Below are positions 32,166-52,763 of a stretch of DNA of 64,000 bases, piece by piece (the first letter of the stretch is position 1; the number at the start of each line of letters is the position of its first letter). A program made the position numbers and the translations under genes. The stretch comes from Prorocentrum cordatum (lineage: Eukaryota), in contig CAUYUJ010000336.1 of NCBI GenBank assembly GCA_963575745.1, forward strand, positions 62,001-126,000, written 5' to 3'. A model generated the notes under the pieces. The model made no database searches, was not told the origin of the DNA, and saw nothing but the letters and a program-made list of their open reading frames with translations.

Positions 32166-32449
32166 ACTTTAAACGGAGAGGGTTAAAGGCGAGATGTAAA
32201 TCGAGCATGCACCGCTGCCGTGCCTGGCTCAAGCCGGGCCCGGCCAAACATGTGATTGTGCCTCACCGAGGCGCACTACTCGCATCTGAGATCGGAAAAG
32301 ACCTTTCTATTGAAGATGCCCCTTCTATCCTTTACTCCAGATCCCATGCTTCATCTTGCTCTCTTGCTCATGCGGTATGAGCCAAAGCCTGGGATATGGG
32401 AGCGCCTAAGGCGGAACATATATCTTGGCTTACCAGTGCGTTTTCGACT
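32166..32449 (+). repeat. 5' LTR
   Basis: Matches 48381-48664 except at 32207, 32278 and 32426. Confidence 0.95.
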
Positions 32450-34073
32450 TGGTAGCGGAGCTGGCTACACTCTCGTGTGGCTGGCTCTCGCTCTAATACC
32501 CATCATCCACGGCACAACTTGGTGGACTACTACTACGGTGGAATACCATGTTGCGCCGGCTCTGCGAGGAGCGGAGCCAGTCCGCGATCGGGCTAGCGGG
32601 GCGACCCGCGAGCTCGAGACGCTCTCTCCTACCTCACTGCGCTACTTCACTCCCGACTTCCACCAGATGCCAATCGGCAACTCGATCGAGAACGTGGTCA
32701 CTCTGCGGGGCTACCCGCAGCGGGGCCACCTGCATCCCGTGCCGGTCAGGCGCCTTACGGCTACTACGCCCGAGCCTGACAAACCACAGCCTAAACCAAT
32801 CACCGAAGCCGAGATGCACATGCACTGGATCAAGATAACTATCTTCGGCATTCTATGGGTGATAATGGGATGTGCTGTGGGCTACATGCGGCAGGGGATG
32901 GACGACACGCGTACTACCGGCCCTTCTTGGGACCCAGCCGGTACTACGCCCTTTCGCGAGTACGTTCGCGAAGTACATGCATGGATAAACGTGACGAGCG
33001 GCAATATGACGCCACCTCAGCAAGCTGCAGCACTACAACGTGGTCTTCAAGGCCTTGCTCGTCGTATCGCCATGCAGGTCCCCTCCCAGATCATCAATTA
33101 TGGTGTAAATGTCAACGGACAGCCAACGGATGCAGTTACTTATATACTTTATCTATTGAGTACCAAATTTGAAAATCTGGAAGATGAGCGCCAGCTCAAC
33201 TCTGGCACTGCCCTTATCGACTTTCGCGTCGAAAGGGGCGAGCGAATCGACTCAGTGTTAGCTCGATTCGAGATGGCCCGTGACGAGGCTAACTCTGTTG
33301 GATTTGTCATCCCCAACTTTCAGATCCTAACGCTGATCCTTTTCAGAGCGTTAGGCGTTGGCGCGTCACGAGCCCAACACCTGCTGGAGCCCTTCAATCA
33401 TCAGATGCCCAGAACGCAAGCAGACTATGATAGGCTGCTGACCAGGATGAGGAACTACGGGCATGTTGCCGAGCGCTCTCCTGGCAACATTGCGGGCATC
33501 TTCGCAGGGCACCACGCACATGCAGGTGTCTACGCCACGACTGCGGGGTCACCCGCTGGTCCTGGCGAGCCAAGTCCCTGGGCTGATTCAGCCGATATGC
33601 CCAACGAGGCCACTGCCCTCTTAGGGCAGACCGGCCAGGCATCGGCAGAGGCAGCGGAGGCGAACGCCTGGTCGAACTACACGCCGGGCGCCGCCTACAC
33701 TGCAAGCCCGCCCTCGGGCACAACCCTCTGGGGCCAAGCGGAGTCATCCGCTCAAGGGTCTCAGCCACCCTCTCCGTTTGAATCTGGCACTGACACAGAT
33801 ACCTCATCTGACGGTGATCACAATGGTATGGTCTCTGCTGGCAATGACTATCCAGCTGATGACACTCACCTTTCTGAACAACAAAGAGCGGAAGCCGCTT
33901 TTATGGCTTATCGCAAATCAAAACGCCGTTGGAGGCGCATTATGAAGAAACCGGTCAGAAAAGTGAGACGTGCAGCACGCCGAGATTTCAAACGCTATGG
34001 AAAGGGTCGTGGCAAAGGGGTCGCAGACGCCGTATGCATGGTAGGGGCATCACTGCTTTCCTCACGTCCTTAA
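32256..34073 (+). CDS. gag: Gag ORF with an N-terminal hydrophobic extension; true start uncertain (Gag core from ~32898)
   Basis: GPSWDP..TPFREYVREVHAW, FRVERGERIDSVLARFE (major-homology-region-like) and a basic C-terminus. Shifts into the next ORF near 34020. Confidence 0.8.
   Translation: MCLTEAHYSHLRSEKTFLLKMPLLSFTPDPMLHLALLLMRYEPKPGIWERLRRNIYLGLPVRFRLGSGAGYTLVWLALALIPIIHGTTWWTTTTVEYHVAPALRGAEPVRDRASGATRELETLSPTSLRYFTPDFHQMPIGNSIENVVTLRGYPQRGHLHPVPVRRLTATTPEPDKPQPKPITEAEMHMHWIKITIFGILWVIMGCAVGYMRQGMDDTRTTGPSWDPAGTTPFREYVREVHAWINVTSGNMTPPQQAAALQRGLQGLARRIAMQVPSQIINYGVNVNGQPTDAVTYILYLLSTKFENLEDERQLNSGTALIDFRVERGERIDSVLARFEMARDEANSVGFVIPNFQILTLILFRALGVGASRAQHLLEPFNHQMPRTQADYDRLLTRMRNYGHVAERSPGNIAGIFAGHHAHAGVYATTAGSPAGPGEPSPWADSADMPNEATALLGQTGQASAEAAEANAWSNYTPGAAYTASPPSGTTLWGQAESSAQGSQPPSPFESGTDTDTSSDGDHNGMVSAGNDYPADDTHLSEQQRAEAAFMAYRKSKRRWRRIMKKPVRKVRRAARRDFKRYGKGRGKGVADAVCMVGASLLSSRP
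32450..32461 (+). promoter_or_regulatory. Primer-binding site, tRNA-iMet type (TGGTAGCGGAGC)
   Basis: Directly follows the 5' LTR. TGG is complementary to the tRNA CCA end, and the sequence resembles the TGGTAGCAGAG initiator-Met PBS. Confidence 0.85.
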
Positions 34074-37000
34074 CTGATGTAGTTTTTGAAGAAGTTCTTA
34101 TCGGAGGCAAAGGTCGGGGTCACAGGCGGACCTCTGGTAAGGGAAAAGGGCGGAGGGGTAACCCTAGGGACGCTTCTGGCAACACTATGAAGTGTCATAC
34201 ATGCGGTAGCACAGAGCATTTGCGCGATCATTGCCCGAAGGGGAAAGGAAAGGGATCCGTACATTTGGCTCAAAACTCTTTTATGGATGACATAGACTAC
34301 ATTGACTACGAGTTTTACGTCAATCCAGAAGCGGCTCCCGCCGCGGGCTCCTCCACGTACTACGTGATGGCCCGCTACGCTGATGCGACCGTAGCCCTGG
34401 AAGAGTACGCGGTGACCCTCTTCGACGAGTTCCACGGCTGGGACGAAGTCGACGAGGGCGCGTTCAACGCCTGGTTCGGTCTTCCAGCGGGGCCACCCGC
34501 CGACGACGAGATCTCCGAAGCTGAGACCGTCCCGGCGACCGAGGAGGAGCTCGCCGCCGCGCTGGCGCCGCAGGTGATCGGCATGCCGTTGCTGCCTGAT
34601 CTTTCGCGAGCCGGCTCGGAAGCGGGAGACGCTGACGACGAAATGCGGGGCCATCCCGCAGCTTATTCTGACTCTGAAGAGGCCGAAGAGGACTATGAGG
34701 ACAGGCTCCAAGAGCAGGTCGCAGAAGCGATCCAGCTCCTGAGTGCGCCAGCACAACAGCAGATGACCATGAACGACCTGCTGTCGCGCCCAGGGGCCGC
34801 AAGGCTGCGTCCATACCTGGATCCTGATATGTCGGCACCGCAGATGCTGACCGCACTCCAGGCCCTAGCGGGGCCACCCGCTGAAGCGGCGCCAGCTGCA
34901 GCAGCGGGGCTACCCGCTTGGTCGATGGACGAGTTCATGCAGGGCTGCGACCAGATGGACCTCAACGACCTCACTATGGAGCAGCTGACCGACATCGGGT
35001 ACTTCCAAAGCCCGCATCAGCACGTATTCACGGTCCAGGACAGCTCAGAGGACTCGGAGGACATGCGCAATGCAAAGAAGAACAGACGACCATCGCCACC
35101 TCGAGATCCAGAGCACCGTCATGAAGATGAAAGGCCCATGGAACGTGGCAGTGCGTCAGCGGGGCCAACCCGCAGGAGGAGCCGTTCAGCTCCACGACGC
35201 CCTACACATGATGCATCTGGCTACCCGTACAGCACGGAGCACTCCAGAGGTGTATCCGCTCAGTACGTGCCGGAGTGGTACATCAATTGGTACCCCGGCT
35301 ACCCGATGGACGTGATCCGCCACTGGTGGTCCAAGGAGCACTGCAAACGGGACGAATCTGGCATCATAATACGCACCAAAGGTGGCAAGACTAAAACGCC
35401 AGAGGCTTGGGACCGAAAGGCTAAGAAACAGGAGATCATCAACGATCGCAAGACATACAGGAAACAAGTATGTCAATGCGAGCCTTTCAAAGGTCACATG
35501 CGCGGCTGTCCAATGGACCGCCCCTCCAGGAGCCCTCATCACGGTGAGACCCCCTGGAACTGGTCTCATGGAGATGACGCTGGCACCGTCCACGATCCTA
35601 ACAAGAAGGTCCCTGGAGGAGGAAAGCGCATTACCGAAGCCGATCGCGTCCCTATGATCGAGGGGGTTGCTGACACTGTCAGGGAAAATTGGGAACAGCT
35701 TCCTAAAGACCATCGCCTCAAAGAATGGAACCGCCGATTCCATGAAGAGGCGGGGTCACCCGCAGACTCCAGCGGAGGTGCGGGGCCACCCGCGGGCGCG
35801 GCGCCAGCCGCTGGGTCCGCGGACGAAGAGTGGATGGCTGTTGCATCTGCTGCCGGATCCGCCGCCGGCACTGACCAGACCGAACTGAACGAAGAATGGG
35901 CGGCGGAAGACGGCTCAGAGAATCCATTCCCTGATGGATGCGCCTGCTGGTGCTACAGCTCCTCGGCACAGAAGTGGTTTTGCACGAGGGTACTTTACCG
36001 CCACGAAAATGGCAAGTACAAGCTGGCCATAAAAGGTAGTGCCAACATCGACCAGATGAGGCAGGTCATCCATGATCATGGCCAGCCAGAAGGCCCTCCT
36101 AAAGACCCTCCTGGTCCACCACCAGAGGACGACGAAGACATCGAACCACCTCCAGGACCTGTGGTCGACTCCTCGCCTCCACCTTCTCCTGAGAAGAGGT
36201 CTCCTTCCAAGAGCCCCGAAGGTTCACAGGGGCGTGCGAAGGCCAGAGGGATCGCCAAGAAGGACGACCCTGAGCCGGGAGAGCCTACCGGCCCGTCCGT
36301 GACGGAGAGGAGGAAGGCTTTTGCTGGACCATCAGCCCCGATGCCACCGGCTGCCCAAGGCGACGTCAAGGACGAAGATCGCGACCAGCCTAAGGCAGCC
36401 TTCCGAGGTGGCTGGACTCCAACTCTGCATCAGCCGCGCCTTGCACCACGACCAGGCTCGGCACGAATGAAAGCGCAACCGAAGCCCGAGGCTGGGTTGA
36501 GGTCGGTGCGGGCAGAGGCAGCCGCCAAAGGTAAGGAGGACAAGGGCTCTGCGGGGCCACCCGCTGAAGCGGCGCCAACTGCAGCAGCGGGGGCACCCGC
36601 AGAAGGCACTCCCTCAGAAGAAGAACGCCGCAAAGCCCTCAAAGAAATTGACAACCGACAGAAACTAGCCGACGATGCGCTGGCTGACCAAGGTCACCCG
36701 CACCCTGGTGCGGGGTCATCCGCTGGAGCTGCCTCGGCAGCCGCAGCGGCGCCAGCTGCAGCAGCGGGGCCACCCGCACGTCGGCAACCAGCGTCGTCTG
36801 TTCTCAAGAACATCCCTCTGGGAGCCATTGAATATTGGCAAGGCATTGAAGGCAAAGGCCCGAAACGCACCATAAACCCACGAGTCACTCGAGATGATAC
36901 AGATCGATACGCGGTCATCGATTGCCCCGATCGTCGTAACTTCGAGTGCCGTAACGAATGGGAACGTGAACAACAAGTCGTGGGCAATATGTTGCGGGAC

Positions 37001-40000
37001 AGGCCGCCATTGCGCGTCGCGCAGCACAAGGCAGAGCTCATGAATGTCATGAAGAGGTTCAACACAGATCCGACTCTGCCGCGCGATTGGCAAATGGCCA
37101 AGGTGTCAATATGGTTCTCTACAGCCCTACGCCATGGTCCGTATTGGAAAGATGGATTCAGCCGATACTTCGAAAAGATTGACACTTTCGATCCATACGA
37201 TGGCTGGGTTGTTGTTGACGACTTGCTGGCAAATTGGACTGGTGACAATCAGTGGAAAGGCTACCAGGACATGCACGATGTGCTTATCAAGGGCAACCCT
37301 CACAGCTCATACGTGTATTGGGTGTTGCTGAACTGCTGCGAGATGATCGACAACCATGGCATGCAGAAGGGCAGGCTCCAGATGAAATGCGTCGAGGATA
37401 GCATGACGCTACCTCCCAGATTCCGACCAAAGGCACACAGGCCACAATATTTCATCAGAGCCACGAACGGCCATAGCAGCCCAGGCATCCACTGCCCAGA
37501 GTCGCTCTATAAGCCCATCACGACATGGATGAAGGAACCAGATGACCCAGTATACTTTATCCACGGGACACAGTGGGAGCATGTTAAGGGCATCCTTGAG
37601 AATGGCCTTTCATGCCTCACACAGGACAACCCTAAGGGGCAGGGGGGGCGCCAGTTCGTTCACGGCTGCCCCTACCTCCCGGGTGACCCGAGGATTCAGT
37701 CGGGCATCCGTCCTGACTCTGAGGTGCTCATCTTCTGCAGCATCAGCAAGATGTTGTCCAGCGGCTTCTCTTTATGGAGGTCAGCGAATGACATCGTCAT
37801 GACACGGGGCCACAATGGCCGCATACCGCCCGATCATATCTTTCAGATTGTGAGCATTGCAAAATATCGGGTCGGTGAAGCCTGGTGCAATCCGCTGGCT
37901 TACGACAAATCGCGGAAGCGGGGCCAACCCGCGGACAGGATTTGCTCCGAGGACTACTTGCCACTTAAAATGTGCAACAGAGTTCTGGGTGTGATGGACG
38001 AGCACGCCATGTACCTAAAGGGCTGGACTAAGACGGGCGGTCGCCCATTCAACCTGACCATGACCGAGCAAGACGTTGCTCCACGACCGTACCTCACACA
38101 GACAGTCCTCATGATAAACGCCCAGGAAGACGAGGTCATGCCTGAGGCGGGGCCACCCGCAGGAGCGGGGACACCCGCGGCAGACACCTCGGATGGTTCA
38201 TGGCAGCAAGTGGTCACGCCAGTAGCCGCAGTAGCATCTCCTTGGAGGCCGGACCAGCAGACATGGGTCCAGGCCCTCAACAGCTACCTGTCACCAGCCG
38301 ACGTTTCTGGACTGACCGATCAGCTATACCGTGCTGACCCGTGGGCAGTGCAGGCAGGTATCCAAGACGCACAGCAGAGGAACCTGCGCACTCCTGCGGG
38401 GCCACCAGGCGCCCTAGGACCACAGCCACAACGCCCTCCGCAGCAGGCTGGAGGTGCGAGGTTTGTCCCTATGGGCGGCTCCGATGGTGGCTCGCCGTTC
38501 CGGACTCCGCCGTCTGAAACGAGCGAGAACAGCTTGTGGCAAAGACTCCAGGCGATTCGCGGAAATCCAGCACTCGCGGCAGCACTCCAAGCAACCACTC
38601 CCTTTGGCACTCCGAGGGGTAGTGAAGGAGGAGCGGCTGCGGGGTCACCCGCTGGGCGAACGCCTGCGGAGCCACCCGCTCAAGCGGGGTCACCCGCTGA
38701 CGGACAGCAAGGTTCAGACTACGAACGTCGGGCAGCTAACTTAAGAGCACAGGCTACTTTTCTGCAACAACAAGCTGAAAGAGTGCCCAGCCTGTTGCGG
38801 AACCGCAACATAGACGTCACAAGCCATGGCGACTTCCGACCTCTCTGGAGTTGGACTTCTGAAGATGCTCCAAACGCTGATCCCACGAATCCATATCGAC
38901 AGGTGTTTATTCCAGGAATAGCATCACACCCGATATACGGATGGGACAATCACGGTCCAGCAGAGGCGCCGGCCATGGACGCGCCGATGTACCCTGAGTA
39001 CTACGCGCAGATAAATGACACTCCTATGATTGCGGGGCCACCTGCGAACGAATACACTCGGAACTTAGCTAATGAGATGTTTCGTTTGCAGTTTACACGA
39101 GCGGTCGATGCGCAGTCTATGCCACACTACGCCTACATGCCCACGCCGACGGACCCCGAGACCATAGTCCAGCCAGCTGGTCTCGCGGTGCCAGCCGCTA
39201 TGGGCAGCATGCCAGACTACATCCGCGACGTGCACAACACGCAGCAAGCGATACTGGCATCCAGGCAGCAGGCTCGTGACAACACTAGGCTGCGCCAACA
39301 ACGCGCGATCCAGAGAAGGATTGAGCGCGAGGCCCAAGCGGGGCCACCCGCGGAAGCGGGGCCACCTGCTGAACGGCCAGAAAGGCGGCCGCCACCGACG
39401 CCATATCGGGAGGGCGAAACCACGTTCGAGCGCCAAGCTCGGACTCGCCCTGACTTGCCTGCTCCAGTCATCTCAGACTACAACTTCACTCAGTGCCCAA
39501 TCTGCATGGACAACTACGAGATGGGCACTACAGTGTGGAGACTGGCGTGCGGGCACTTCTTCCACGACATATGCTGGGACCGTGTTGCACAGCAGCATGT
39601 CCGCAATCAGCGGCCAGGTGCGCCGAATGAGGCCCCCTGTGCCGTATGCCGTGGACCGGGCATAGTGATAGCACACTTCCCGTATGCTGGACAGCGCGAT
39701 GCGGAGTCGGACCAAGCGCGCCAGCAGGAGAGGTACGTTGCAGATGCCCGCGAGATGCGTCGGTTACGCGAAGCAGTGGAGGCACTGGAGGCTCGAGCCG
39801 CACGATCGGCGGAGCCATCCGCGCGTGCCCCAGCTGCACAGGCATACCCCTGGCCAGCGCCAGAACAAGGCATTCAGATGCCGGTCTTGCCCACGCTCCG
39901 AGCGCAAGAGCCCCCAGCTGCGGGGCCACCCGCTGAAGCGGCTCCCGCCGCTCAAGCGGGGCCACCCGCTAACGGACCTCCAAACCCAGGTTTCTTGAGG

Positions 40001-41731
40001 AACATGGAGGCTAACATCAGGCGGAGTGGCAGGAGCGGAGGCGGGATTCGGAGGCCAACTGGATCGACCAGGACCTCTCGAGTGGCAAGCCCGGTCAGCG
40101 CCAGAAGCCGGGCAAGCGCTGAGAGCGCAGAGGCAGCCCAGTTCCATTCCACATTCATGATCGACACAGAGGGGCTGACCTACGTGCGTGACGATACTGA
40201 CACGCTGCCACCAAGAGGCGAATGGATGTCCACGCTATCTGCAAACTATTGGGTCCTCCAGCAGGAACCGATTACTGTGGAGGAGCGCCGCCAGTACGAG
40301 CAGATGTGGTGCACCGAGCTGACCATGACTCAATGGGTTCTTGAACAGCGCCTGTTGAGGGGTACACTCGGATCGCAGATCACGTACCACACCAACGACC
40401 ACACTGGCGTACAGGTCGCTCTTGCAGCGCGCAATGGGACATTCTTTCCTGATGAAGATGGTATGCCCTGTATCTCGTTCATGCTGGACATTGGTTCTAA
40501 TGTGAACATCATTGGATCCAACACGGCGCGGACCTTCCAGGAGATAATGGCCAGGTTCAACTACCGACCTGCCATCTGCACCCTGAGCAAGACCCTCTAC
40601 ATCAATGGTGTTGGGGAGGGCGCTGCGATATGTCGGAAGATGGGCAACTTCAAGATCGGGGTACAGTACGCCAACGAGGCGAGCCCCCGCATTGAGGAGT
40701 ATGCCTCCAACATCGCAGAAGGCTCGGGCGCCAATCTCCCGGCTATCTGGGGCCTAGGGGCCATGGAGGCACGTGATACGATCATCGTGTTGAAGCCGGG
40801 CTACCAGAAGGTCATCTTCCCCAGCGGCGACTACACCCTGAAGCTGGGAAGAGGCGCCAAGGTCCTGAAGGCGAAGAAGACTCCCTCGGGACATCTCGCG
40901 ATTCCCTGCGGGCTGTACGATGGGGCCAAGAGCCACACGGTCACGAACACCTTCACGATCCGCAGCAGTCGAGATGGCTACACCGAGACGGAGAACGAAG
41001 AGGACCCCGCCAGTGCGGGTCCACCCGCTGCGGCGGGGCCACCCGCTGACGCGTCAGCGGGGCCACCCGCGACGGGACAGTTCGCCAATCCGAATAGGCA
41101 CGAGGACTTCGTTCGTACATCTACCAACAGCTGGACATCGACCTTCACGACCGATACGTACATCGTCGAGCCGTATATCGACAAGCAGCTCCTGGAGGAC
41201 ACGACCCGTTTGATCGTGAACAGGACGCTGAACAGCTGGTGGGAGGGCCGACAGTGTCCCGAAGGGACTTGGCACCCACCTCCTGAGAACGCGGCGATGA
41301 TACGGCCACACATGAAGGCCGCCCTGAAGTCCAAGATCTTCTGGGCAGTCCAGGAGGCGGTGAGCAAATGGACGCCTGAGGAGTTTACCCCTCTGCATCC
41401 AGCGGGGCCACCCGCGTCACCGCCACCGCCACCAAGCTACACGGGCGGAGGTTCGTCGGACTCTGCGGGGCCAACCCGCCTGCTGTCGTCTGAGGACGTC
41501 CGCGGGATGACGAACCGCGAGCTGATGGACACTCTCGAAGCCATCACCCAGCGAGGTGAGAGAGCGGAGATCGTGGGTCACGCTACGGATCGGACGGAAT
41601 ACTTTGACATCTCTGAGAACAACCCGCCGAGTCTGTCTGCGAGCGTGGCCACACCAGCGACTCCTGCGGAGCCATCCGCGAACAGCACGCCTCCGAGTCA
41701 AGCGGCAACTTGGTCTCACGACAGCCGCTGA
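33929..41731 (+). CDS. 2600-aa polyprotein segment: CCHC knuckle - disordered region - Tpt1/KptA - RING-H2 - aspartic protease
   Basis: CHTCGSTEHLRDHC (34193-34234); Tpt1 motifs; CPIC..CGHFFH..C..CAVC; MLDIGSNVNIIG and PAIWG. Confidence 0.9.
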   Translation: MEAHYEETGQKSETCSTPRFQTLWKGSWQRGRRRRMHGRGITAFLTSLTDVVFEEVLIGGKGRGHRRTSGKGKGRRGNPRDASGNTMKCHTCGSTEHLRDHCPKGKGKGSVHLAQNSFMDDIDYIDYEFYVNPEAAPAAGSSTYYVMARYADATVALEEYAVTLFDEFHGWDEVDEGAFNAWFGLPAGPPADDEISEAETVPATEEELAAALAPQVIGMPLLPDLSRAGSEAGDADDEMRGHPAAYSDSEEAEEDYEDRLQEQVAEAIQLLSAPAQQQMTMNDLLSRPGAARLRPYLDPDMSAPQMLTALQALAGPPAEAAPAAAAGLPAWSMDEFMQGCDQMDLNDLTMEQLTDIGYFQSPHQHVFTVQDSSEDSEDMRNAKKNRRPSPPRDPEHRHEDERPMERGSASAGPTRRRSRSAPRRPTHDASGYPYSTEHSRGVSAQYVPEWYINWYPGYPMDVIRHWWSKEHCKRDESGIIIRTKGGKTKTPEAWDRKAKKQEIINDRKTYRKQVCQCEPFKGHMRGCPMDRPSRSPHHGETPWNWSHGDDAGTVHDPNKKVPGGGKRITEADRVPMIEGVADTVRENWEQLPKDHRLKEWNRRFHEEAGSPADSSGGAGPPAGAAPAAGSADEEWMAVASAAGSAAGTDQTELNEEWAAEDGSENPFPDGCACWCYSSSAQKWFCTRVLYRHENGKYKLAIKGSANIDQMRQVIHDHGQPEGPPKDPPGPPPEDDEDIEPPPGPVVDSSPPPSPEKRSPSKSPEGSQGRAKARGIAKKDDPEPGEPTGPSVTERRKAFAGPSAPMPPAAQGDVKDEDRDQPKAAFRGGWTPTLHQPRLAPRPGSARMKAQPKPEAGLRSVRAEAAAKGKEDKGSAGPPAEAAPTAAAGAPAEGTPSEEERRKALKEIDNRQKLADDALADQGHPHPGAGSSAGAASAAAAAPAAAAGPPARRQPASSVLKNIPLGAIEYWQGIEGKGPKRTINPRVTRDDTDRYAVIDCPDRRNFECRNEWEREQQVVGNMLRDRPPLRVAQHKAELMNVMKRFNTDPTLPRDWQMAKVSIWFSTALRHGPYWKDGFSRYFEKIDTFDPYDGWVVVDDLLANWTGDNQWKGYQDMHDVLIKGNPHSSYVYWVLLNCCEMIDNHGMQKGRLQMKCVEDSMTLPPRFRPKAHRPQYFIRATNGHSSPGIHCPESLYKPITTWMKEPDDPVYFIHGTQWEHVKGILENGLSCLTQDNPKGQGGRQFVHGCPYLPGDPRIQSGIRPDSEVLIFCSISKMLSSGFSLWRSANDIVMTRGHNGRIPPDHIFQIVSIAKYRVGEAWCNPLAYDKSRKRGQPADRICSEDYLPLKMCNRVLGVMDEHAMYLKGWTKTGGRPFNLTMTEQDVAPRPYLTQTVLMINAQEDEVMPEAGPPAGAGTPAADTSDGSWQQVVTPVAAVASPWRPDQQTWVQALNSYLSPADVSGLTDQLYRADPWAVQAGIQDAQQRNLRTPAGPPGALGPQPQRPPQQAGGARFVPMGGSDGGSPFRTPPSETSENSLWQRLQAIRGNPALAAALQATTPFGTPRGSEGGAAAGSPAGRTPAEPPAQAGSPADGQQGSDYERRAANLRAQATFLQQQAERVPSLLRNRNIDVTSHGDFRPLWSWTSEDAPNADPTNPYRQVFIPGIASHPIYGWDNHGPAEAPAMDAPMYPEYYAQINDTPMIAGPPANEYTRNLANEMFRLQFTRAVDAQSMPHYAYMPTPTDPETIVQPAGLAVPAAMGSMPDYIRDVHNTQQAILASRQQARDNTRLRQQRAIQRRIEREAQAGPPAEAGPPAERPERRPPPTPYREGETTFERQARTRPDLPAPVISDYNFTQCPICMDNYEMGTTVWRLACGHFFHDICWDRVAQQHVRNQRPGAPNEAPCAVCRGPGIVIAHFPYAGQRDAESDQARQQERYVADAREMRRLREAVEALEARAARSAEPSARAPAAQAYPWPAPEQGIQMPVLPTLRAQEPPAAGPPAEAAPAAQAGPPANGPPNPGFLRNMEANIRRSGRSGGGIRRPTGSTRTSRVASPVSARSRASAESAEAAQFHSTFMIDTEGLTYVRDDTDTLPPRGEWMSTLSANYWVLQQEPITVEERRQYEQMWCTELTMTQWVLEQRLLRGTLGSQITYHTNDHTGVQVALAARNGTFFPDEDGMPCISFMLDIGSNVNIIGSNTARTFQEIMARFNYRPAICTLSKTLYINGVGEGAAICRKMGNFKIGVQYANEASPRIEEYASNIAEGSGANLPAIWGLGAMEARDTIIVLKPGYQKVIFPSGDYTLKLGRGAKVLKAKKTPSGHLAIPCGLYDGAKSHTVTNTFTIRSSRDGYTETENEEDPASAGPPAAAGPPADASAGPPATGQFANPNRHEDFVRTSTNSWTSTFTTDTYIVEPYIDKQLLEDTTRLIVNRTLNSWWEGRQCPEGTWHPPPENAAMIRPHMKAALKSKIFWAVQEAVSKWTPEEFTPLHPAGPPASPPPPPSYTGGGSSDSAGPTRLLSSEDVRGMTNRELMDTLEAITQRGERAEIVGHATDRTEYFDISENNPPSLSASVATPATPAEPSANSTPPSQAATWSHDSR
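37090..37852 (+). CDS. tpt1: Tpt1/KptA RNA 2'-phosphotransferase domain within the polyprotein
   Basis: FSTALRHG, DGWVVVDDLL, KGRLQ, IRATNGHS, HGT, ILENGL, RQFVH, SGIRPDSEVLIF, RSANDIVMTRG.NGRIPP appear in the family's order. Confidence 0.9.
39494..39652 (+). CDS. RING-H2 (C3H2C3) zinc finger within the polyprotein
   Basis: CPICMDNYEMGTTVWRLACGHFFHDICWDRV...CAVCR. Confidence 0.92.
40470..40920 (+). CDS. Retropepsin-like aspartic protease domain (DIG active-site variant)
   Basis: ISFMLDIGSNVNIIG, flap INGVG, NLPAIWGL, TPSGHLAIP. Confidence 0.75.
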
Positions 41732-42709: not shown

Positions 42710-42718
42710 CGATCGTCG

Positions 42719-45700
42719 ATGACGATCGGTCTCCTCCCCCTTTCGATTGAGCGTTGCCAAACGCGACCCACCAACTTTTCTGAAATTCCGCCATTTCCTG
42801 ATCTAACAGCGGATCCTTCCGCAGCGGATCTCTCCGCGGAAACCGCGCTGCCCACTGATGCCAGGATAAAACAGAAAGAAAAGCAGAAAGCTGACAAAGA
42901 GGCTGGCATCAAACCGAAGAAAATCCCGAAGAAAGTGGAAGACGGTAACGACGATTGTGGAGAGGACCTCAAAGGGCTTGACTGCTCCACATATTTCAAC
43001 GACGTTCCTCTTGATGACTCGGACTCGGACAGCGAATCAGAGGACATCTTCATGATGCTACCGGCGGGGCAACCCGCTGACTCACATGCTGATGTCTTCT
43101 CGGTGGTCCAGTCACTATGCTACGGCAGAAACAATCAAGTGGACATGCTTGAATTATGTGGGGGCAAGGGTGGTATATCCATATTAGCCTTCAAGAGGGG
43201 ACTCTCGTCGGGCGGGAACCTTGATAAGATATCTATGGTTGACCTTGGAAACTCGGAAGTACAAAGAGCAGTCCTTCACTACCTCAAGACTTGCTTTGTC
43301 AAGATCACGATTTTGCAGCCAAGCTGCAGAACTACTGGACTTCCTTCATACTTCAATGCACAGGTCAATCATGATACGTGGCTTAAACACCACAAAGAGG
43401 ACCTGCCTCACATCACGTTCTGCGGAACAGTCGCTCTATTACAAGACGACCTAAGACGTTTCTTTCTCAGGGAACAACCAATGGGCACGTGGGTAGATGA
43501 GATCCAACCATGGAAGGAACTGGCACAACGCAAGGTCACTTGCCAAACGATTATTGATCAATGCACGACTGGTCTCAAAGATTCGTTTGGACAATACATT
43601 CGCAAGCCAACACAAATGATGGCAAACAAAGAAGAGTTGTTGGCACCTTTCAGAGGCAAGCGTTGTCCAGGTAATCATGTGCACGCCAATGCTTGCAACA
43701 AAGAACTAGCAAGGGCGGCACAGTATACCTACAGAATGCAGTCACTGATCGTTGATGCGGTGCAAATCGCCAGAGATCTGTTTGCTTACGGTCGCGATCC
43801 ATTTGCGAATCGCGAACGCAGTTACGCGTTCGTAACAAACAGTGCTGGCTACGACTTGGACGACCCAACAATCCAGAGACACTCAAACGGAGAAATCCTG
43901 CGACCACCATCTGGCGGTCTCGGGTGCCCTGGCTGCGCAGACAACAACTACAAACAATCACCAAGGCACAGCAGGAATCCGAAGATGTGTCGATGGTATG
44001 ATGTTGAACCATATTATTGGGACTGTCCAAGCTGTAAGAAGGAATATCAGAAGAGCAATCCTCACCATGCCAAGATATCTGGCCAATGCAGATTCGCCGA
44101 AAAATGGAAGCTGCCAGATAACTTTGGTCAGCCGCGCCCAGCGGGGCAAGCCGCTCCTGCGGCGCCAGCCGCGGAAGCGGCTCCAGCCGCAAACGCGGCG
44201 CCGGCCGCGAAAGCGCGCATACGCGCGCCTAGGCCGCCACGGCCTGGTGAGGGCGATCCAACCGCAGGCGCCAGCAGCCATGACATCACCAAGGCCAAGG
44301 GGGCTTATGGTGACACCACTGGCGCTGGCAGCTCTGACGATCACCGCAGACTGCCGCAAGTGGCAGCGAGGCGCGGACGCATGGAGGGAGGTGATCCTCC
44401 ACCGCCGCCGCAGCCTCATGCAGAGCCGAGGCCAAGGCCAAGGCTTCCTGATTGGACTCGCTTCGACGTTCAGCTCAGCCTTCAAAACCTGCGCAGCTTT
44501 GACCCAGCTGTAGTGCAGCGAGAACTCCGCAAGCTTCACTTGAGATGGTTTCATGCCAAGGAACCAAAGATGCGGATGATTCTAGCTAAGGTTGGTCTGG
44601 GTGAAACCCGTTTGAGTCTGATCAAAGGCATTTGCGACTCGTGTAGAGAATGTCGTGCCTGGGAGAAACCAGGCAACACGGCGATGCCTTCTGTGTCACT
44701 GCCAGGATGTTTCAACGAGGAAGTCGAATGTGATCTTTTCTTTCACAAACAGGAACACATTGTCTTTCACATCATCGACCGTTGTATTCGCTGGGCAGCT
44801 GGCACAGAGATTCCTGATAAGACTATGCACGCTGTTCTCGATGCCTATCACACAACTTGGATGCAACATGGCCCTGCTAAGATCCTATACTCCGATGGGG
44901 AAGGAGCGCTGAATAACGACACAGCAAAGGCCATCCTTAAATCCAAGGGAACAGAGCTTCGTATCCGAGCGCGTGGCCAGCACGCCACGACTATCGAAGC
45001 TAGGAACGGCATCCTGCGACACCTCATACACGTGATGGGAGAAGAACTGAATAGATTGAACATCCCTCTGAATTTCACTCGTCTCTTACATGAAGCCTTG
45101 TTTGCCAGCAACGCATTTACCTTCTACAACGAAGTGTCTCCGTATAATGCGCTGTATGGCAGACAACCAGCTATGCTTCCCGATTTCCCTGTCCTGGATC
45201 ATGATCAGTCCGCTGAATCATCAGATCACTCAAAGGAAGAGACAATCAGGAGGGTTAGTCTGGAGGCAATCACGCAGGCCACTGCGGTTGCCAAGACGAA
45301 CAGGGCTCTTCGTACGAAGACTACTGCTACGGGTGAATTTCACTACAAAGAGGGAGATCTCGTGGACTATCATCGCCCGACCACCACGAAAGACGACTGG
45401 GGTGGATGGAGTGGTCCATACCCGGTCATCCGCAACGAACCTGACCGAGGCCAGGTCATCGTGAAGGTCGGCAATCGCGAAGTGCGAGTACAGTATCCTG
45501 ACTCACGACATACGCTGTACATCGAAGCACTGATGGTCCGCGAGATAGGATCGGACAATACGGCCCTTCGGACAGTATTGGCCTTTATTGCCGGTCTGCC
45601 AGCGGGGAAACCCGCTATGACTTTCGGATACCTACCAGCGAAACAGGGCCGACTGCAGATGACTGCTGCGAGCCGGCTTTCGCCTAAGGTGCACTTGGCT

Positions 45701-47062
45701 CTTCAATATCTCATTCGCAACTATTTTCGCATTGAAAACGTGGTTGCTGTACGACTTGCTAAGAGCCTGACTAAGTTGCCTGCTGCACCATATGCAGACA
45801 GCTGTACACTAGTGCACTATGATAACGATGTGACCCCTGGCTTTCATTATTATGAAGCTGATGGCACTGCCTTGAACATCTACGACATCACAGGGTCTAC
45901 ACATTCACGCATCATCCAGTGTCTTAAATCCAAGAAGCCGCTTGCTGGATTCGACCGAGACCTCACTAAGTTTGAGGAACTCGCTGATGGTTCACCACCA
46001 AGCGAGCCACCTCCAGCAGCTGCTCCTGAGCAGCTTCCTGCGGCGAATGATGGTCGGCTCCCGACCATCATAGAGGAAACAGAAGAGGATCTGGATGTCT
46101 TTGTCTTGGAGTCATGGTATGCTGAACTGATGGATGACAGAACACTCCTTGAAGCTGACACAGAAGAAGTCATGCACACAGTTCCGACATACATGACAGA
46201 CTCACAGTGCGTGTTGGTCTCTACGACCTGTTCAGATGTGCAAGGCCACTCGCCGGTGCGGGGTCACCCGCCAGGATACGACATGGACACCTCTTACTGC
46301 GTCCCTCTGTGCTCCACTGATCCGGACAGCCACTATGATCTGGACTCCGACGAGCACGGGAAGTACATCGAGCTTTGCTTCGCAGCAGACATGTCCAAAG
46401 TCGTCCTGTCCGAGCAGCAACACCGATTGTTGGGTGACAGCAGCGTCGCAACTATGCGAGTATATGTTAATGCTGCCTCCAAACGTGCCGTGGTCGTCAA
46501 AGAAGACGACCTACTCACGAAGGCCGACATTCAAGCGAATCCGGTCAACGTTTCCAAAGCCTTTTACACAGAATTGAAGACTTGGCTTGACAACAAATGC
46601 TTCCAGATGACTGACTTGAGCAAAGCGTCGAACATCATGACTTCACGCTATGTATACAAATGGAAGTTTGTCAAGAACGAGAAGGGCGAAATGGAACGGA
46701 CGATCAGGTTACGCTTGGTACTTCGTGGCTTCATGGACATTGAAGCCTTCGATGCCGAAACCTTCTCTGGCACGGCAAGGAGGTCAAACCAGAGATTGCT
46801 CGCAAGTTCTGCTGCATGCAACAAAGCTTGGATCATCGCTTCCCTGGACATCAACATGGCTTTCTTGAAGGGACTGACCTATGGCGAGCTCGCCGCGGCA
46901 ACTGGCGAGAAAGAGCGTGTGGTGTGCTTCACACTACCTCCTGGGTCAGCAGCTGTCCTTCGCACATTGCCAGGCTTTGAGTCATATGACGAATCAAAGC
47001 ATTGTCTTCGGTGCCTCAAGCCGGGGGCTGGCACGAAGGATGCTCCCAGGGCTTCTCGCTGA
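42719..47062 (+). CDS. pol: Pol segment: C5 DNA methyltransferase-like domain - zinc fingers - integrase - RT N-terminal half
   Basis: ELCGGKGG, QPSC, REQP, DQC..GL..RKPT; H-x4-H...CDSC; ECDLF/YSDGEG/IEARN (DDE); SRYVYKWK, RLVLRGF, LDINMAFL, GTKDAP. Confidence 0.9.
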   Translation: MTIGLLPLSIERCQTRPTNFSEIPPFPDLTADPSAADLSAETALPTDARIKQKEKQKADKEAGIKPKKIPKKVEDGNDDCGEDLKGLDCSTYFNDVPLDDSDSDSESEDIFMMLPAGQPADSHADVFSVVQSLCYGRNNQVDMLELCGGKGGISILAFKRGLSSGGNLDKISMVDLGNSEVQRAVLHYLKTCFVKITILQPSCRTTGLPSYFNAQVNHDTWLKHHKEDLPHITFCGTVALLQDDLRRFFLREQPMGTWVDEIQPWKELAQRKVTCQTIIDQCTTGLKDSFGQYIRKPTQMMANKEELLAPFRGKRCPGNHVHANACNKELARAAQYTYRMQSLIVDAVQIARDLFAYGRDPFANRERSYAFVTNSAGYDLDDPTIQRHSNGEILRPPSGGLGCPGCADNNYKQSPRHSRNPKMCRWYDVEPYYWDCPSCKKEYQKSNPHHAKISGQCRFAEKWKLPDNFGQPRPAGQAAPAAPAAEAAPAANAAPAAKARIRAPRPPRPGEGDPTAGASSHDITKAKGAYGDTTGAGSSDDHRRLPQVAARRGRMEGGDPPPPPQPHAEPRPRPRLPDWTRFDVQLSLQNLRSFDPAVVQRELRKLHLRWFHAKEPKMRMILAKVGLGETRLSLIKGICDSCRECRAWEKPGNTAMPSVSLPGCFNEEVECDLFFHKQEHIVFHIIDRCIRWAAGTEIPDKTMHAVLDAYHTTWMQHGPAKILYSDGEGALNNDTAKAILKSKGTELRIRARGQHATTIEARNGILRHLIHVMGEELNRLNIPLNFTRLLHEALFASNAFTFYNEVSPYNALYGRQPAMLPDFPVLDHDQSAESSDHSKEETIRRVSLEAITQATAVAKTNRALRTKTTATGEFHYKEGDLVDYHRPTTTKDDWGGWSGPYPVIRNEPDRGQVIVKVGNREVRVQYPDSRHTLYIEALMVREIGSDNTALRTVLAFIAGLPAGKPAMTFGYLPAKQGRLQMTAASRLSPKVHLALQYLIRNYFRIENVVAVRLAKSLTKLPAAPYADSCTLVHYDNDVTPGFHYYEADGTALNIYDITGSTHSRIIQCLKSKKPLAGFDRDLTKFEELADGSPPSEPPPAAAPEQLPAANDGRLPTIIEETEEDLDVFVLESWYAELMDDRTLLEADTEEVMHTVPTYMTDSQCVLVSTTCSDVQGHSPVRGHPPGYDMDTSYCVPLCSTDPDSHYDLDSDEHGKYIELCFAADMSKVVLSEQQHRLLGDSSVATMRVYVNAASKRAVVVKEDDLLTKADIQANPVNVSKAFYTELKTWLDNKCFQMTDLSKASNIMTSRYVYKWKFVKNEKGEMERTIRLRLVLRGFMDIEAFDAETFSGTARRSNQRLLASSAACNKAWIIASLDINMAFLKGLTYGELAAATGEKERVVCFTLPPGSAAVLRTLPGFESYDESKHCLRCLKPGAGTKDAPRASR
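43136..43765 (+). CDS. Cytosine-5 DNA methyltransferase-like domain
   Basis: Motif I (MLELCGGKGG), III (VDL), IV (QPSC with Cys), VI (LREQP), VIII (DQC...IRKPT), X (AAQYT..M...IV). Confidence 0.8.
44525..45500 (+). CDS. Integrase (HHCC, DDE core, SH3-like tail)
   Basis: LHLRWFHA...CDSCREC; VECDLF; YSDGEG; IEARNG; YKEGDLVDYHR..WSGPYPV. Confidence 0.9.
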
Positions 47063-48275
47063 AGCTTCCATCACCAGGAGCTTTGGACTACAGCCTACTT
47101 CATACGATGAAGAGTTCGAGATGAGTTCAAACCTCTTGACAGCCAAACACGTTGATGACATCAATATGACTGGGAAGGAAGATTCCATTGACAAGTACGT
47201 CAAATGTGTTGAAGATACGTTTGGAAAGTGCAAACTGAACAAGCACACATACACAAATTGTGCCGTTCGGTACAACAAGACCGATGATGGGAGCGTCACT
47301 CTTGATCAGGACGAATACATCAAACAACTTCGTCCTATCACACATCCAGAGCTCACAGGCGCTGATCCTGAGAGCAAAGCGACAAAGACGATTTCTGATA
47401 TGTTCGTCAGTCTTCGTGGCGCTCTAGCCTATGCGTTGATCACGCAGGTATGGCTGATGGTCTATGTTGTTTCACTGCAACGTATCCAGGAACCGACAAA
47501 CATCCAGGTACGACGACTGAACGCGGTTACCAGGAAATTGCAGGCAGGTCCGAAGAAGATCGTGTATCAAGCTATGACTCCAACAGGAGAGGTCGACCTG
47601 CATAGCGATTCTGGCTATCGTCGTCTCAACGGAGATGAAGACGACGAAGTCAAAGGCTACGGTATCCGCGGGGCTAACCTGCTGAGGCGTGGCCACACGC
47701 AAGCGGGGAAACCCGTCGTGCACCTGGTGGACGCATACTGCAAGTCTCATCGACTGCAGGTGCGTTCGAGCTACTCTGCGGAAACACTGGCAGCAGCCCA
47801 CAACTTGGAAGACTGCTACCCGACCATTGTAACGCTCCACGAGCTACACTCGGGACCATTGACCCCCACACAGTTGAAGAACATATTGGAACTGGGTGGT
47901 CTATGTATCAAAGTCACTCTGACTATTGATGCCGAGTCTGTCTTCAAGTCTTTGTCTAGCAAAGATCTGAAGAAGCCCACATAATGCACTCTGCTTGGGC
48001 ACATCAGCTGGATCCGCCAGATGATGGAGCGCGGAATCGTTGAAAGCGTCCAATGGTGTGACACGCGGGATATGACTGCCGATGGTCATACCAAAGGTAG
48101 TATTGACCGCGCGTTGCTCCTACAGGTAATGGCCGGTCAGCAATCCTTCAAGCACGAGCTGAAGAAACATACTCCGTATAGGGCGGGCAGGTCGTCTCAG
48201 GACGGCCCTGCCTCCCGAGCTAGCGGGGAAACCCGCGCGCAGGTGCGCTTTAGTAGCGAGGAAACTCGCCGGTAG
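47050..48275 (+). pseudogene. pol: RT C-terminal half and Copia-type RNase H (frameshifted, one internal TAA)
   Basis: KHVDDI, LDQDEYI, HSDSGY, RSSYSAETLA, IDAESV, DMTADGHTKG. Frameshift at ~47055-47070 and TAA at 47982-47984. Confidence 0.9.
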
Positions 48276-48380
48276 CGAGGCTACTCGCGCGCCCTTGCCT
48301 TGTAGGCAGCCGCTGTTGCCTAGCACTGTTTTTTCCGCGTAATGTAGAAATTCGGTGCTTGCTCGTCTCCTCCCCCTCCA

Positions 48381-48664
48381 ACTTTAAACGGAGAGGGTTA
48401 AAGGCGAGATGTAAATCGAGCGTGCACCGCTGCCGTGCCTGGCTCAAGCCGGGCCCGGCCAAACATGTGATTGTGCCTCACCGAGGCGCACTGCTCGCAT
48501 CTGAGATCGGAAAAGACCTTTCTATTGAAGATGCCCCTTCTATCCTTTACTCCAGATCCCATGCTTCATCTTGCTCTCTTGCTCATGCGGTATGAGCCAA
48601 AGCCTGGGATATGGGAGCGCCTAAGGCGGAACATATATCTCGGCTTACCAGTGCGTTTTCGACT
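48381..48664 (+). repeat. 3' LTR
   Basis: 284-bp copy of 32166-32449, followed by CCAAG. Confidence 0.95.

Positions 48665-52699: not shown

Positions 52700-52763
<64 letters not shown>

Follow-up and report, generated by a model that had tools for sequence, protein, structure and literature searches.

Analysis of a 64-kb stretch of DNA (the window) located a young Ty1/copia-like LTR element of 16.5 kb at positions 32166-48664, in a host that is a dinoflagellate-like alga. The 5' LTR (284 nt, 32166..32449) and the 3' LTR (48381..48664) lie on the plus strand and are 99% identical in alignment, with 3 differences, and a 5-bp target-site duplication, CCAAG, was found just outside both ends of the element. 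In the alignment, the 5' LTR is followed at once by a PBS-like sequence starting with TGGTAGCGGAGC (32450..32464, plus strand); we take TGGTAGCGGAGC to be the usual copia-type PBS, the complement of the 3' end of the initiator tRNA. No tRNA genes were found within the 64-kb window. The two LTRs, the short target-site duplication and the TGGTAGCGGAGC sequence adjoining the 5' LTR identify the element as an LTR retrotransposon.

The gag-side ORFs (32256-34073 and 33878-41731, plus strand) contain the main field of the hairpins described below. The first in-frame Met codon downstream of the PBS is at 32667 and the last stop codon of the element at 47984. The match to RVT_2, the copia-type reverse transcriptase, scored 28.6 bits, below the cut-off of 31.6, in this copy, which is frame-broken. 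Homologues matched PF07727, and one of them PF00665 together with PF07727; the order of integrase upstream of RVT_2 is that of the alignment consensus only. A regular expression applied to the translation found a single nucleocapsid-like CX2CX4HX4C zinc knuckle (34193..34234, plus strand), preceded by a very Arg/Lys-rich stretch. Judging from its sequence, this region is a candidate binder of the hairpins.

A preliminary description of this locus reported about 40 dispersed mini-hairpins confined to the element. Scans were performed on both strands with the pattern GCGGGGNNACCCGC (GCGGG-GNNA-CCCGC), allowing up to 2 mismatches, and the element was compared with its 47.5 kb of flanks. The plus strand of the element yielded 25, 8 and 10 copies with 0, 1 and 2 mismatches (total 43), besides 5 variants with five-base loops: the hairpins are real, and the signal is stronger than had been reported. 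These 43 + 5 stem-loops of one shared motif extend along the sense strand from the leader to the 3' end, and all 13 coordinates named in the preliminary description carry the sequence given for them. The corresponding numbers were 0, 1 and 29 on the minus strand of the element, 0, 0 and 6 on the plus strand of the flanks and 1, 0 and 5 on their minus strand. Confinement to the element thus held overall, the one exception being the lone exact flank copy at 52516-52529 on the minus strand. The regular expression put forward earlier for the same comparison gave 48 matches in the 64 kb, 42 in 32571-48288 and 6 in the flanks, or 2.5 per kb of element versus 0.13 per kb in the 47.5-kb flanks; base pairing is seen in only 3 of the 6 flank matches, and G..A loops on the plus strand are absent from all 6.

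A tiny self-inserting mobile palindrome, like the in-frame Rickettsia palindromic elements or mitochondrial GC clusters, could also scatter such a motif. The number of hairpins varies as insertions in one variable RNase H loop, and unit number differs between siblings, both of which speak for it. We consider it very unlikely, since the 47.5 kb of host flanks are free of copies save the one on the minus strand, target duplications and terminal repeats are lacking, and the 14-nt unit keeps the frame only with spacers. No flank duplication was seen around the hairpin copies. Assignment to the RPE/REP/MITE-like micro-elements was rejected: in the flanks within the window, copies with fewer than 2 mismatches numbered 0 on the plus strand, with one exact copy on the minus strand. 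DNA uptake sequences and the cyanobacterial HIP1 palindrome are short motifs over-represented via transmission bias, and Rickettsia RPE and REP are in-frame palindromic insertions; motifs of this class work on DNA and throughout a genome. The present hairpins resemble them as a short palindromic word forced into coding sequence, in frames that the protein tolerates, but they are confined to one element family, are strand-asymmetric and show base-pair compensation.

Perfect 5-bp stems with a GNNA loop occur 40 times in the element versus 1.24 in dinucleotide-type shuffles, and 5 and 3 times in the flanks, where 1.8 and 1.0 were expected. The element has 40 G..A loops versus 3 of the antisense-type TNNC, a clear strand asymmetry. 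In frame, the hairpin reads GCG GGG nnA CCC GCn and encodes A-G-x-P-A. Synonymous-codon shuffles of the ORFs (n=300), a control suggested in the preliminary description, were scored with three regular expressions; 39, 25 and 24 matches were observed, whereas the shuffles gave means of 3.4, 1.6 and 0.13 and maxima of 8, 5 and 2. Codon choice is therefore fixed far beyond codon usage.

Selection of the AGxPA peptide itself, for example as a protease site or linker module, would account for the conservation of A-G-x-P-A among the sister proteins, but we find it scarcely credible. Codon choice is fixed, and x never varies at its wobble position: column 9, where the loop codon ends, holds A in 43/43 copies, while the two preceding bases vary. 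Off phase, the hairpin gives LRGYP, MRGHPA or VRGHPP, and it is also found in the non-coding ends, and relatives retain the hairpin over the peptides HGNV, RGNA or ARERA. Codon fixation, the off-phase and non-coding copies and the peptides of the relatives refute the peptide as sole cause.

Among the copies, which are paralogues and include duplicated variants, 96.4% of cells are paired, compared with 88.8 +/- 1.2 in shuffles and 34-58% in slid controls. Cells changed on both sides number 7 versus 0.9 in shuffles, and the covariation score is 0.267 versus 0.108; each of the three values was reached by 0/500 shuffles. Eight of the 10 two-mismatch variants are perfectly paired, and the 8 single variants comprise 5 G.U, 1 A.C, 1 G.G and 1 loop change. 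Hence pairs are kept by compensatory change beyond the controls, as in structured RNA, and the compensatory stem changes claimed earlier were confirmed. Since some variant 14-mers are present more than once (GCGGAGCCATCCGC at two sites; GCGAG in two adjacent copies), the independent compensatory events are below these counts, at roughly 4 stem types. The codon shuffles, the compensation, the tolerance of G.U, the untranslated copies and the off-phase relatives all support the earlier proposal that the hairpin, and not the peptide, is under selection; the selected hairpin is that of the sense strand.

The GNNA loop with free middle bases was also borne out, by the 40 G..A loops. The loop is GNYA in 33/40 and GNRA in only 7/40, and with a purine at position 3 in so few copies the window hairpins were not assigned to the GNRA tetraloop class. 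GNNA loops are stable in DNA too, and freedom of the two middle bases is more typical of the GNNA family of DNA than of the GNRA family of RNA. One of the functions suggested in the preliminary description, a hairpin on single-stranded cDNA, was excluded for the minus strand, the one that stays single-stranded for long: the sense strand shows G..A loops, not T..C, and on it G.U (G.T in DNA) outnumbers A.C. For the plus strand, a DNA mini-hairpin acting during or after reverse transcription survives as a rival, favored by the two free middle loop bases (33/40 not GNRA) and by G.T being the mildest DNA mismatch. We judge it unlikely, because the loops of the relatives are GNRA in 26/33 and single-stranded plus-strand DNA is short-lived.

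Every recurrent stem type (GCGGG, GCGAG, GCGTG, GCGCG, GCACG, TCACG, TCGTG and ATCCG) has a CpG in each arm. This could be due to a palindromic CpG site in double-stranded DNA that serves as the binding or methylation target of a dimeric protein, for instance a putative cytosine methyltransferase of the element. One lead is the ESM-Atlas neighbour cluster of the domain at 43100-43795 (score 0.96), which was auto-named cytosine-5 methyltransferase and has no common Pfam family. The alignment shows conserved ELCGGxG and PxC motifs, which presumably correspond to MTase motifs I and IV. The element gave no C5-MTase match in Pfam at E<0.1 or among PDB sequences at E<0.4, and the poor predicted structure (pLDDT 60.5) had no fold match at E<=0.001. 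A reader of double-stranded DNA would not allow G.T or arms that swap freely if paired; in addition, the spacer is asymmetric, with G..A on one strand only (40 versus 3), and the lower stems are of unique sequence. With the MTase family found in none of the Pfam, PDB sequence and fold searches, and given the strand asymmetry and free stem swaps, the CpG target put forward in the preliminary description was not upheld, and we regard it as highly improbable.

The leader cluster of 4 hairpins was located by motif scans and folding at 32571..32733 on the plus strand. The copy at 32571 has a 5-nt loop on a GCGGA/TCCGC stem, those at 32596 and 32705 have GCGA and GCTA loops, and that at 32720 has one G.U pair; 32571, 32596 and 32705 are in three different frames. 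All four are present in the minimum-energy structure of 32445-32760 (z = -4.8 versus shuffles). Of the 43 copies inside the two-mismatch limit, 30 belong to the main field in the gag-side ORFs (33543..41679, plus strand), at 33543, at 33738 and then 28 from 34487 to 41666, together with four five-base-loop variants at 34645, 35159, 37918 and 41465. Pol-side copies (43064..47716, plus strand) lie at 43064, 44141, 44159, 45602, 46258 (phase 2), 47687 (GCGTG/CACGC) and 47703 (one G.U). Between the last stop codon and the 3' LTR lie three untranslated hairpins (48223..48288, plus strand), as had been noticed before: GCGGG-GAAA-CCCGC, GCGAG-GAAA-CTCGC and GCGAG-GCTA-CTCGC, all of which form in the fold of 48180-48385. 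The earlier statement that the motif occurs in several frames is correct for the leader, the 3' end, pol and the five-base-loop variants, but not for the large ORF, where all 28 copies share phase 0. Only 19/40 mini-hairpins appeared in the minimum-energy structure of +/-60-nt folds, because neighbours nest instead.

Tandem Repeats Finder identified a hairpin array of 18-nt periodicity (5+4+5+4; repeat family D1) at 34867..34918 on the plus strand and further 18-nt arrays at 36551-36605, 39920-39970 and 44140-44208. The arrays have a period of 18 and 2.8-3.8 copies; in the predicted structure they nest, giving a single long hairpin interrupted by GNNA/GNNA internal loops. An extra 18-nt unit at 44182 was seen in contigs from runs X8 and X3. 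The single phase in the big ORF and the 18-nt arrays indicate that in-frame unit duplication adds to copy number.

The hairpins might even have no function, if Ala/Gly/Pro linkers had grown by slippage of the palindromic 18-nt unit together with recent duplication. The arrays, the unit gain at 44182 in two runs, the extra units in sister protein P0021 and the common phase 0 of all 28 ORF2 copies could be read in this way, yet we hold it improbable. The flanks of the copies are unrelated to one another. Copies occupy matching sites in sister lineages, and in two sister proteins at 75-77% identity the linker flanks are 41% diverged (133/226 residues identical), whereas stem-coded residues are identical in 53/56 and the loop residue in 8/14. 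Compensated doubles, the bias to G.U, copies in untranslated ends and other frames, and the different stems of relatives on the same architecture, with covarying lower stems, also stand against it.

The relatives are metagenomic, with 43-71% pol identity, and 21 loci were scanned. These contained 33 5-bp/GNNA hairpins, compared with 6.4 +/- 2.6 in shuffles, and 26/33 loops fall within the GNRA definition, compared with 3.8 +/- 2.3; since the window element has GNRA in only 7/40, the classic RNA tetraloop argument fits the relatives more than the window element. Antisense-type TNNC hairpins, of which there were 18, were also above shuffles (6.4). The relatives have recurrent stems of their own: TCACG (seven times in L011), GCACG (four times in L005), ATCCG (twice in L009), GCGCG (in L015, L020 and L022) and TCGTG. 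Their hairpins are mostly in phase 2, reading xHGNVx or xRGNAx and not AGxPA. The geometry has two tiers, with 5 bp in the upper stem and a lower stem that is free in sequence, separated by an asymmetric internal loop (4 nt/2 nt). These lower stems, unique in sequence, have a mean of 3.48 bp versus 2.51 +/- 0.15 with swapped partners, and they covary, with 88.5% of cells paired versus 63.9 in 13 copies picked after the geometry was known from the swapped-partner test.

Relatives have orthologous hairpins for three of the pol-side sites, 45602, 46258 and 47687. A compensatory swap is seen at 46258, where the stem is GCGGG/CCCGC in the window and, under a different loop, in L002, but GCGAG/CTCGC in L001; at 45602 L001 has a G.U pair. 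One variable RNase H loop carries 0, 1 or 2 hairpins according to lineage. All hairpin-bearing lineages fall in one clade of 15 rows (support 100/100), and hairpins were found in 0/4 outgroup rows. No recurrent hairpin was found in the available sequence of five clade members (L003, L006/L007, L010, L023), 8-10 kb loci included; thus the system is dispensable or replaceable. The hairpins are a trait of the whole clade of giant copia-like elements, with lineage-specific stems under a G-N-N/R-A loop, and the relatives are probably from different hosts.

As far as sequence can tell, the mini-hairpins are structured sense-strand elements, with the genomic RNA as their likeliest carrier. They are kept by purifying selection, evolve by compensatory change through G.U intermediates, and are placed where the polyprotein tolerates them, in Ala/Gly/Pro linkers and variable surface loops, as well as in both untranslated ends. 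A single protein could bind them as many equivalent sites; the best candidate is the Gag/nucleocapsid of the element itself, which would select the 16-kb RNA, coat it and condense it so that it can be packaged into particles. RNAs with more sites would be packaged more often, leading to copy gain, and lineage-specific stems could keep competing families apart. We tentatively put forward, at somewhat less than even confidence, that selected genomic-RNA hairpins serve as Gag/NC packaging sites; of the three functions proposed in the preliminary description, a distributed packaging/condensation signal on RNA seems the best fit. The proposed packaging role and protein partner draw on the analogy with dispersed packaging signals, the nucleocapsid-like knuckle and the Arg-rich stretch.

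GNRA tetraloop hairpins are bound by arginine-rich peptides (the lambda N-boxB type), and iron-responsive-element-like hairpins are two-tier. The present hairpins are similar in their short stem and G...A-closed loop, in the two-tier form of the relatives and in the Arg-rich stretch adjoining the zinc knuckle; they are unlike the N-boxB type in that the window loops are mostly GNYA (33/40). Single-stranded RNA viruses (MS2, STNV, parechovirus) and the HBV pregenome are described as having dispersed packaging signals for 'PS-mediated assembly', short stem-loops of one motif along the packaged strand and largely in coding sequence, as found here (PMC6281560). Those signals are degenerate and of graded affinity, whereas 25 of the putative signals here agree at every one of the 12 specified positions, and they are carried by an LTR retrotransposon. 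The psi/packaging and dimerisation elements of retroviruses and Ty1/Ty3, cis-acting and read by Gag/NC, are placed in the 5' region in the accounts cited (PMC4974528, PMC5454406). Four hairpins likewise follow just after the PBS here, but the repeats are 40-fold and continue through gag, pol and the 3' end. No report of a comparable hairpin system in LTR retrotransposons was found in the literature searched. That related elements have versions of their own points to an undescribed RNA signal.

A doubtful but possible extension of the packaging reading is that, in a clade of giant dinoflagellate copia-like elements, the hairpin acts as a lineage-specific 'barcode'. Dozens of identical GNRA/GNNA stem-loops along the polyprotein gene would be read by the element's own Gag/NC, which would thereby recognise its own RNA and condense it; the stem would co-evolve with the protein, so that particle theft between co-resident families is prevented, and packaging competition would raise copies. 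If true, no earlier case of assembly mediated by packaging signals would be on record for a retrotransposon, and nature would offer a set of orthogonal RNA-tag/protein pairs.

The sense-strand RNA hairpins may instead have been selected for another job, a possibility that we hold open at well below even confidence: recruitment of a host factor (for nuclear export or stability of the unspliced giant RNA), pausing or guiding of reverse transcriptase, or protein-free compaction via loop-helix contacts. All structural evidence fits equally well, nesting of adjacent copies can give long helices whose internal loops are closed by G.A, and stems could follow host factors if the relatives are, as is probable, in different hosts. 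No host factor is known, and a purely physical role leaves one stem reused 25 or more times per lineage unexplained. The sibling contigs have joints between distant hairpin-bearing repeats, e.g. 34900 to 36583; these would suit such another role, but as deletions they are also a cost of the repeated 14-mer that weighs against a purely physical one.

The copia-like LTR retrotransposon at 32166-48664 is bounded by two 284-nt LTRs, with 3 differences between them, and is bordered on either side by the 5-bp target duplication CCAAG. The sequence TGGTAGCGGAGC, which we take to be the usual copia-type primer-binding site, adjoins the 3' end of the 5' LTR; no tRNA genes were found. The element reading frames total about 5,200 codons: the gag-side ORFs contain one CX2CX4HX4C knuckle, downstream of a very Arg/Lys-rich stretch (the two together span about 34000-34260), and the pol side gave a weak RVT_2 match, with PF07727 and PF00665 in pol homologues. 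The family is very abundant: its contig pieces (85-100% identity) numbered 37,007, 5,601, 804 and 1,142 in the public sequencing runs X1, X2, X8 and X3, respectively. Searches of the window flanks by tblastn and blastn found no further element copies or fragments.

Many sibling contigs show 1-base length differences at the ORF1/ORF2 break (34016) and at the break before the last pol ORF (47052). On this evidence the window copy, which is young as judged by 99% LTR identity, is probably frame-broken. Further stops occur at 41731 and 42709. In intact form, the family may encode a single polyprotein of about 5,000 residues.

A degenerate pattern for the mini-hairpin GCGGG-GNNA-CCCGC, which the preliminary description had reported as about 40 copies confined to the element, matched 48 times in the window: 42 matches lay within 32571-48288, and the remaining 6 fell outside it, in 47.5 kb. 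Scanning with GCGGGGNNACCCGC, allowing up to two mismatches, yielded 25, 8 and 10 copies with 0, 1 and 2 mismatches on the plus strand of the element. The minus strand of the element gave 0, 1 and 29, mostly two-mismatch matches because the palindromic arms match and the loop ends do not; the flanks gave 0, 0 and 6 on the plus strand and 1, 0 and 5 on the minus strand. Five more copies have five-base loops. Perfect 5-bp stems closing a G..A loop occurred 40 times in the element versus 1.24 in shuffles, and those closing a T..C loop, the antisense equivalent, 3 times.

The excess persisted when synonymous codons were shuffled within each ORF for 300 rounds: three versions of the pattern were observed 39, 25 and 24 times, against means of 3.4, 1.6 and 0.13 (maxima 8, 5 and 2). 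In these ORFs GCG accounts for 30% of Ala, GGG for 21% of Gly and CCC for 19% of Pro codons. An Rfam search of 32000-48800 returned no match at E<=1. The sole exact hairpin word outside the element is a minus-strand GCGGG-GCGA-CCCGC at 52516-52529. Its surroundings are 70% GC and contain no element-like coding sequence, and it is probably a chance occurrence.

The encoded peptide is not what is selected, in line with what had been proposed from the sequence: the hairpin is read as AGxPA in phase 0 but as LRGYP, MRGHPA, KRGQPA or VRGHPP in phase 2, and hairpins are also present between the last stop codon and the 3' LTR. Leader hairpins occupy three different frames. The leader and 3'-end hairpins form in minimum-energy folds, and the fold of the whole leader beats all 100 shuffles (z = -4.8). 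Micro-introns, an idea prompted by Amoebophrya introners (PMC7789003), were rejected since the ORFs continue straight through the hairpins. G-quadruplexes were discarded since every G-run adjoins a complementary C-run.

Pairing within the stems is maintained through changes in their sequence. The phase-0 motif is GCG GGG nnA CCC GCn, with the third-position A invariant in 43/43 copies and the middle loop bases free (CC, TC, CT, GC, AC, CA, AA and CG precede it), as first noticed by eye. The eight one-mismatch copies comprise five G.U, one A.C, one G.G and one loop change. Stem covariation, likewise noticed at the outset, is borne out by the ten two-mismatch copies: eight are perfectly compensated (GCGGA/TCCGC, GCGAG/CTCGC, GCGGC/GCCGC, GCGTG/CACGC), one has a U.G and one is broken. 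Across copies 96.4% of cells are paired (88.8 ± 1.2 in shuffles), 7 cells are changed on both sides (0.9 in shuffles) and the covariation score is 0.267 (0.108 in shuffles); none of 500 shuffles reached the observed pairing, double-change or covariation values. A slid-partner control gave 34-58% paired. The independent events are fewer than these counts, roughly four stem types, because identical variant 14-mers recur.

Three of the G.U copies correspond to CpG-to-TpG changes in their 3' arm, and none of the scanned copies has the mirror change, expected to leave an A.C on the sense strand. This asymmetry points to the sense strand, with compensation proceeding through a G.U intermediate, the expected path. 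Among 40 listed of about 1,295 variable places in sibling contigs none fell in a hairpin, with about 1.3 expected by chance, so this comparison is no test. We consider it very probable that a structure of the sense strand is under selection; the data show purifying selection on a sense-strand hairpin with a lineage-specific stem and a conserved G...A loop, repeated about 40 times from the leader to the 3' end and confined to the element.

Copies spaced 18 or 36 nt apart form period-18 arrays. Within them the folding model favours one long nested hairpin, in which neighbouring copies pair arm to arm and a pair of GNNA loops is opposed as an internal loop. Because neighbours nest in this way, just 19/40 mini-hairpins form in ±60-nt minimum-energy folds. 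Contigs from two runs contain an extra 18-nt unit at 44182.

The pol protein was aligned with 12 homologues, leading to 21 metagenome loci and 3 loci (L022-L024) from a MAG labelled as bacterial; no relatives were found among viral contigs. Among these loci, L005, L006, L009, L016 and L023 are the ones with gag-side DNA (2-8 kb). The window's hairpin word was absent from these loci beyond the nearest kin, L001 and L002. Many of the relatives have recurrent hairpin words of their own, which is a new result: TCACG-GNRA-CGTGA in L011 (7 copies), GCACG-GNRA-CGTGC in L005 (4 copies), GCGCG-GNRA-CGCGC in L015, L020 and L022, ATCCG-GAMA-CGGAT in L009 (2 copies, plus one GCACG), TCGTG-GAGA-CACGA in L018, and degenerate versions in L004, L008 and L019. 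Over the 21 loci 33 hairpins with a 5-bp stem and GNNA loop were counted, versus 6.4 ± 2.6 in shuffles, and 26 of the 33 have GNRA loops (3.8 ± 2.3 in shuffles); TNNC loops, the antisense type, were likewise somewhat high at 18. Most copies are in phase 2, encoding xHGNVx or xRGNAx, and some are in phase 0, in phase 1 or past the pol stop. The stems of the relatives are not purine runs, and plus-strand primer tracts were therefore rejected.

The flanks of the relatives' copies pair through unique sequence: best lower stems averaged 3.48 bp, versus 2.51 ± 0.15 when 5' and 3' flanks from different copies were combined. Around the window's own hairpins no excess of lower stem was detected (2.85 bp versus 2.65 ± 0.16). 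Thirteen copies share a common geometry of a lower stem, a 4 nt / 2 nt internal loop and a 5-bp upper stem; in these, 88.5% of cells pair versus 63.9 ± 2.9, a value biased upward because the copies were picked after the geometry was known. At 417-520 of L009, two ATCCG hairpins lie in a 51-nt tandem duplication, with the 3' flank ctcaggaggtaccagatgca repeated along; hairpin units thus also multiply together with their context.

Orthologous sites differ in hairpin content. The site at 46258 reads GCGGG-GTCA-CCCGC in the window, GCGGG-GTAG-CCCGC in L002 and, with a change on both sides, GCGAG-GAAA-CTCGC in L001. At 45602 there is one G.U in L001, and other small hairpins are present in L006 and L009. 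In the variable RNase H loop (LLRRG...VHL), GCGTG/CACGC is common to the window and L001, the window's second copy having a G.U; two TCACG copies add 12 residues in L011, L018 has one TCGTG copy and L008 a 7-bp version with one mismatch. No hairpin was found in this loop in L003, L005, L006/L007 or L010. Since loop content differs by lineage, hairpins are gained and lost as in-frame insertions at positions that the protein can accommodate. Comparison with two sister-lineage proteins (75% and 77% identity) over 14 phase-0 sites gave identity of 53/56 for stem-coded residues, 8/14 for the loop-coded residue and 133/226 for the ±10-residue flanks; one hairpin site is lost and several units are extra.

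In a tree built from 19 rows of the RNase H region (L002, L013 and L022 were excluded for short matches; L012, L015 and L017 were unmatched), all hairpin-bearing lineages grouped into a single 15-row clade (support 100/100), in which the window and L001 are sister to the remainder; the four outgroup rows lack hairpins. Within the clade no recurrent hairpins were detected in L003, L006/L007, L010 or L023, even under relaxed criteria, which argues against an essential role.

It had also been suggested that the hairpin is a CpG target of the element's own methyltransferase. CpG is present in all recurrent stems, and a conserved domain at 43100-43795, shared with relatives and bearing ELCGGxG and PxC motifs in an alignment from which L005 was excluded for a stop codon, has an ESM-Atlas neighbour cluster auto-named cytosine-5 methyltransferase (score 0.96). 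This identity is a lead: the domain matched no Pfam or PDB sequence family, and its poor AlphaFold model (pLDDT 60.5) gave no fold match in Foldseek. The strand asymmetry, together with stems that tolerate G.U and swap their arms freely, does not fit a duplex site, which argues against the hairpins being such a target. A methyltransferase in the element would be interesting in itself, because Symbiodinium Copia elements are reported to be without a DNMT domain (PMC5890265).

The gag-side polyprotein contains an RNA 2'-phosphotransferase Tpt1/KptA domain (PF01885, E 5e-16; 37118-37810) and a RING finger (E 6e-7; 39491-39652). We know of no LTR retrotransposon with either accessory domain. Enzymes of the Tpt1/KptA type remove RNA 2'-phosphates or ADP-ribosylate nucleic-acid ends, and the presence of one within a retroelement is notable in its own right.

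Most loops of the relatives are GNRA and the sense strand is long-lived only as RNA; on these grounds the hairpin is probably an RNA rather than a DNA element. The window element itself argues against a simple RNA-tetraloop reading, just 7/40 of its loops being GNRA. To our knowledge, the choice of RNA for packaging by LTR retrotransposons is poorly understood except in yeast Ty1/Ty3, and nothing is known of it for the giant elements crowding dinoflagellate genomes. One protein would read every hairpin copy, the element's Gag/NC being the obvious candidate. That the hairpins are Gag/NC packaging sites is a tentative proposal, somewhat short of an even chance, made by analogy: they are arranged like the packaging signals dispersed along ssRNA virus genomes (PMC6281560). 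The concept itself is already known, for viruses. In literature searches, as judged from listings and abstracts, repeated tetraloop hairpins were not described for retrotransposon coding sequence or for dinoflagellate elements.

The signal is unusually legible, since a single word of 14 bases recurs about 40 times, and natural mutagenesis is built in: compensated stems, G.U intermediates and free loop bases. The relatives add natural specificity variants. A binding code would thus be testable with one recombinant protein and a few oligonucleotides; should binding prove specific, the lineages would represent a set of orthogonal hairpin-protein pairs. The motif also illustrates how strongly a requirement at the RNA level can dictate the amino acids of linkers, AGxPA in one lineage and HGNV in another.

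The insertion site of the element is an 11-nt satellite (CCCAAGAGGCC, with 21/32-nt higher-order units) at 31682-32133 and 48716-48782. Joins of 32133 to 48665 in X1 and X2 contigs look like uninterrupted satellite or other satellite copies. The flanks also contain tandem arrays at 28245-28653, 30189-30566, 30716-30929 and 50084-50324 (64-, 42-, 12/37- and 20-nt units, respectively) and a 112-nt GA dinucleotide run at 52700-52811. Stretches of the element polyprotein, at 82-99% identity, were found inside four Prorocentrum cordatum protein models (P0019 and P0023-P0025), two of them labelled in UniRef as 1,3-beta-glucan synthase and protein-tyrosine-phosphatase; transposon sequence has probably been fused into these gene models. 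The matches make this dinoflagellate, or a species close to it, the probable host of the element. The clade contigs L022-L024, from a MAG labelled uncultured Rickettsiales, and P0021, a 903-residue fragment assigned to a Myxococcales MAG, look like eukaryotic contigs binned in error.
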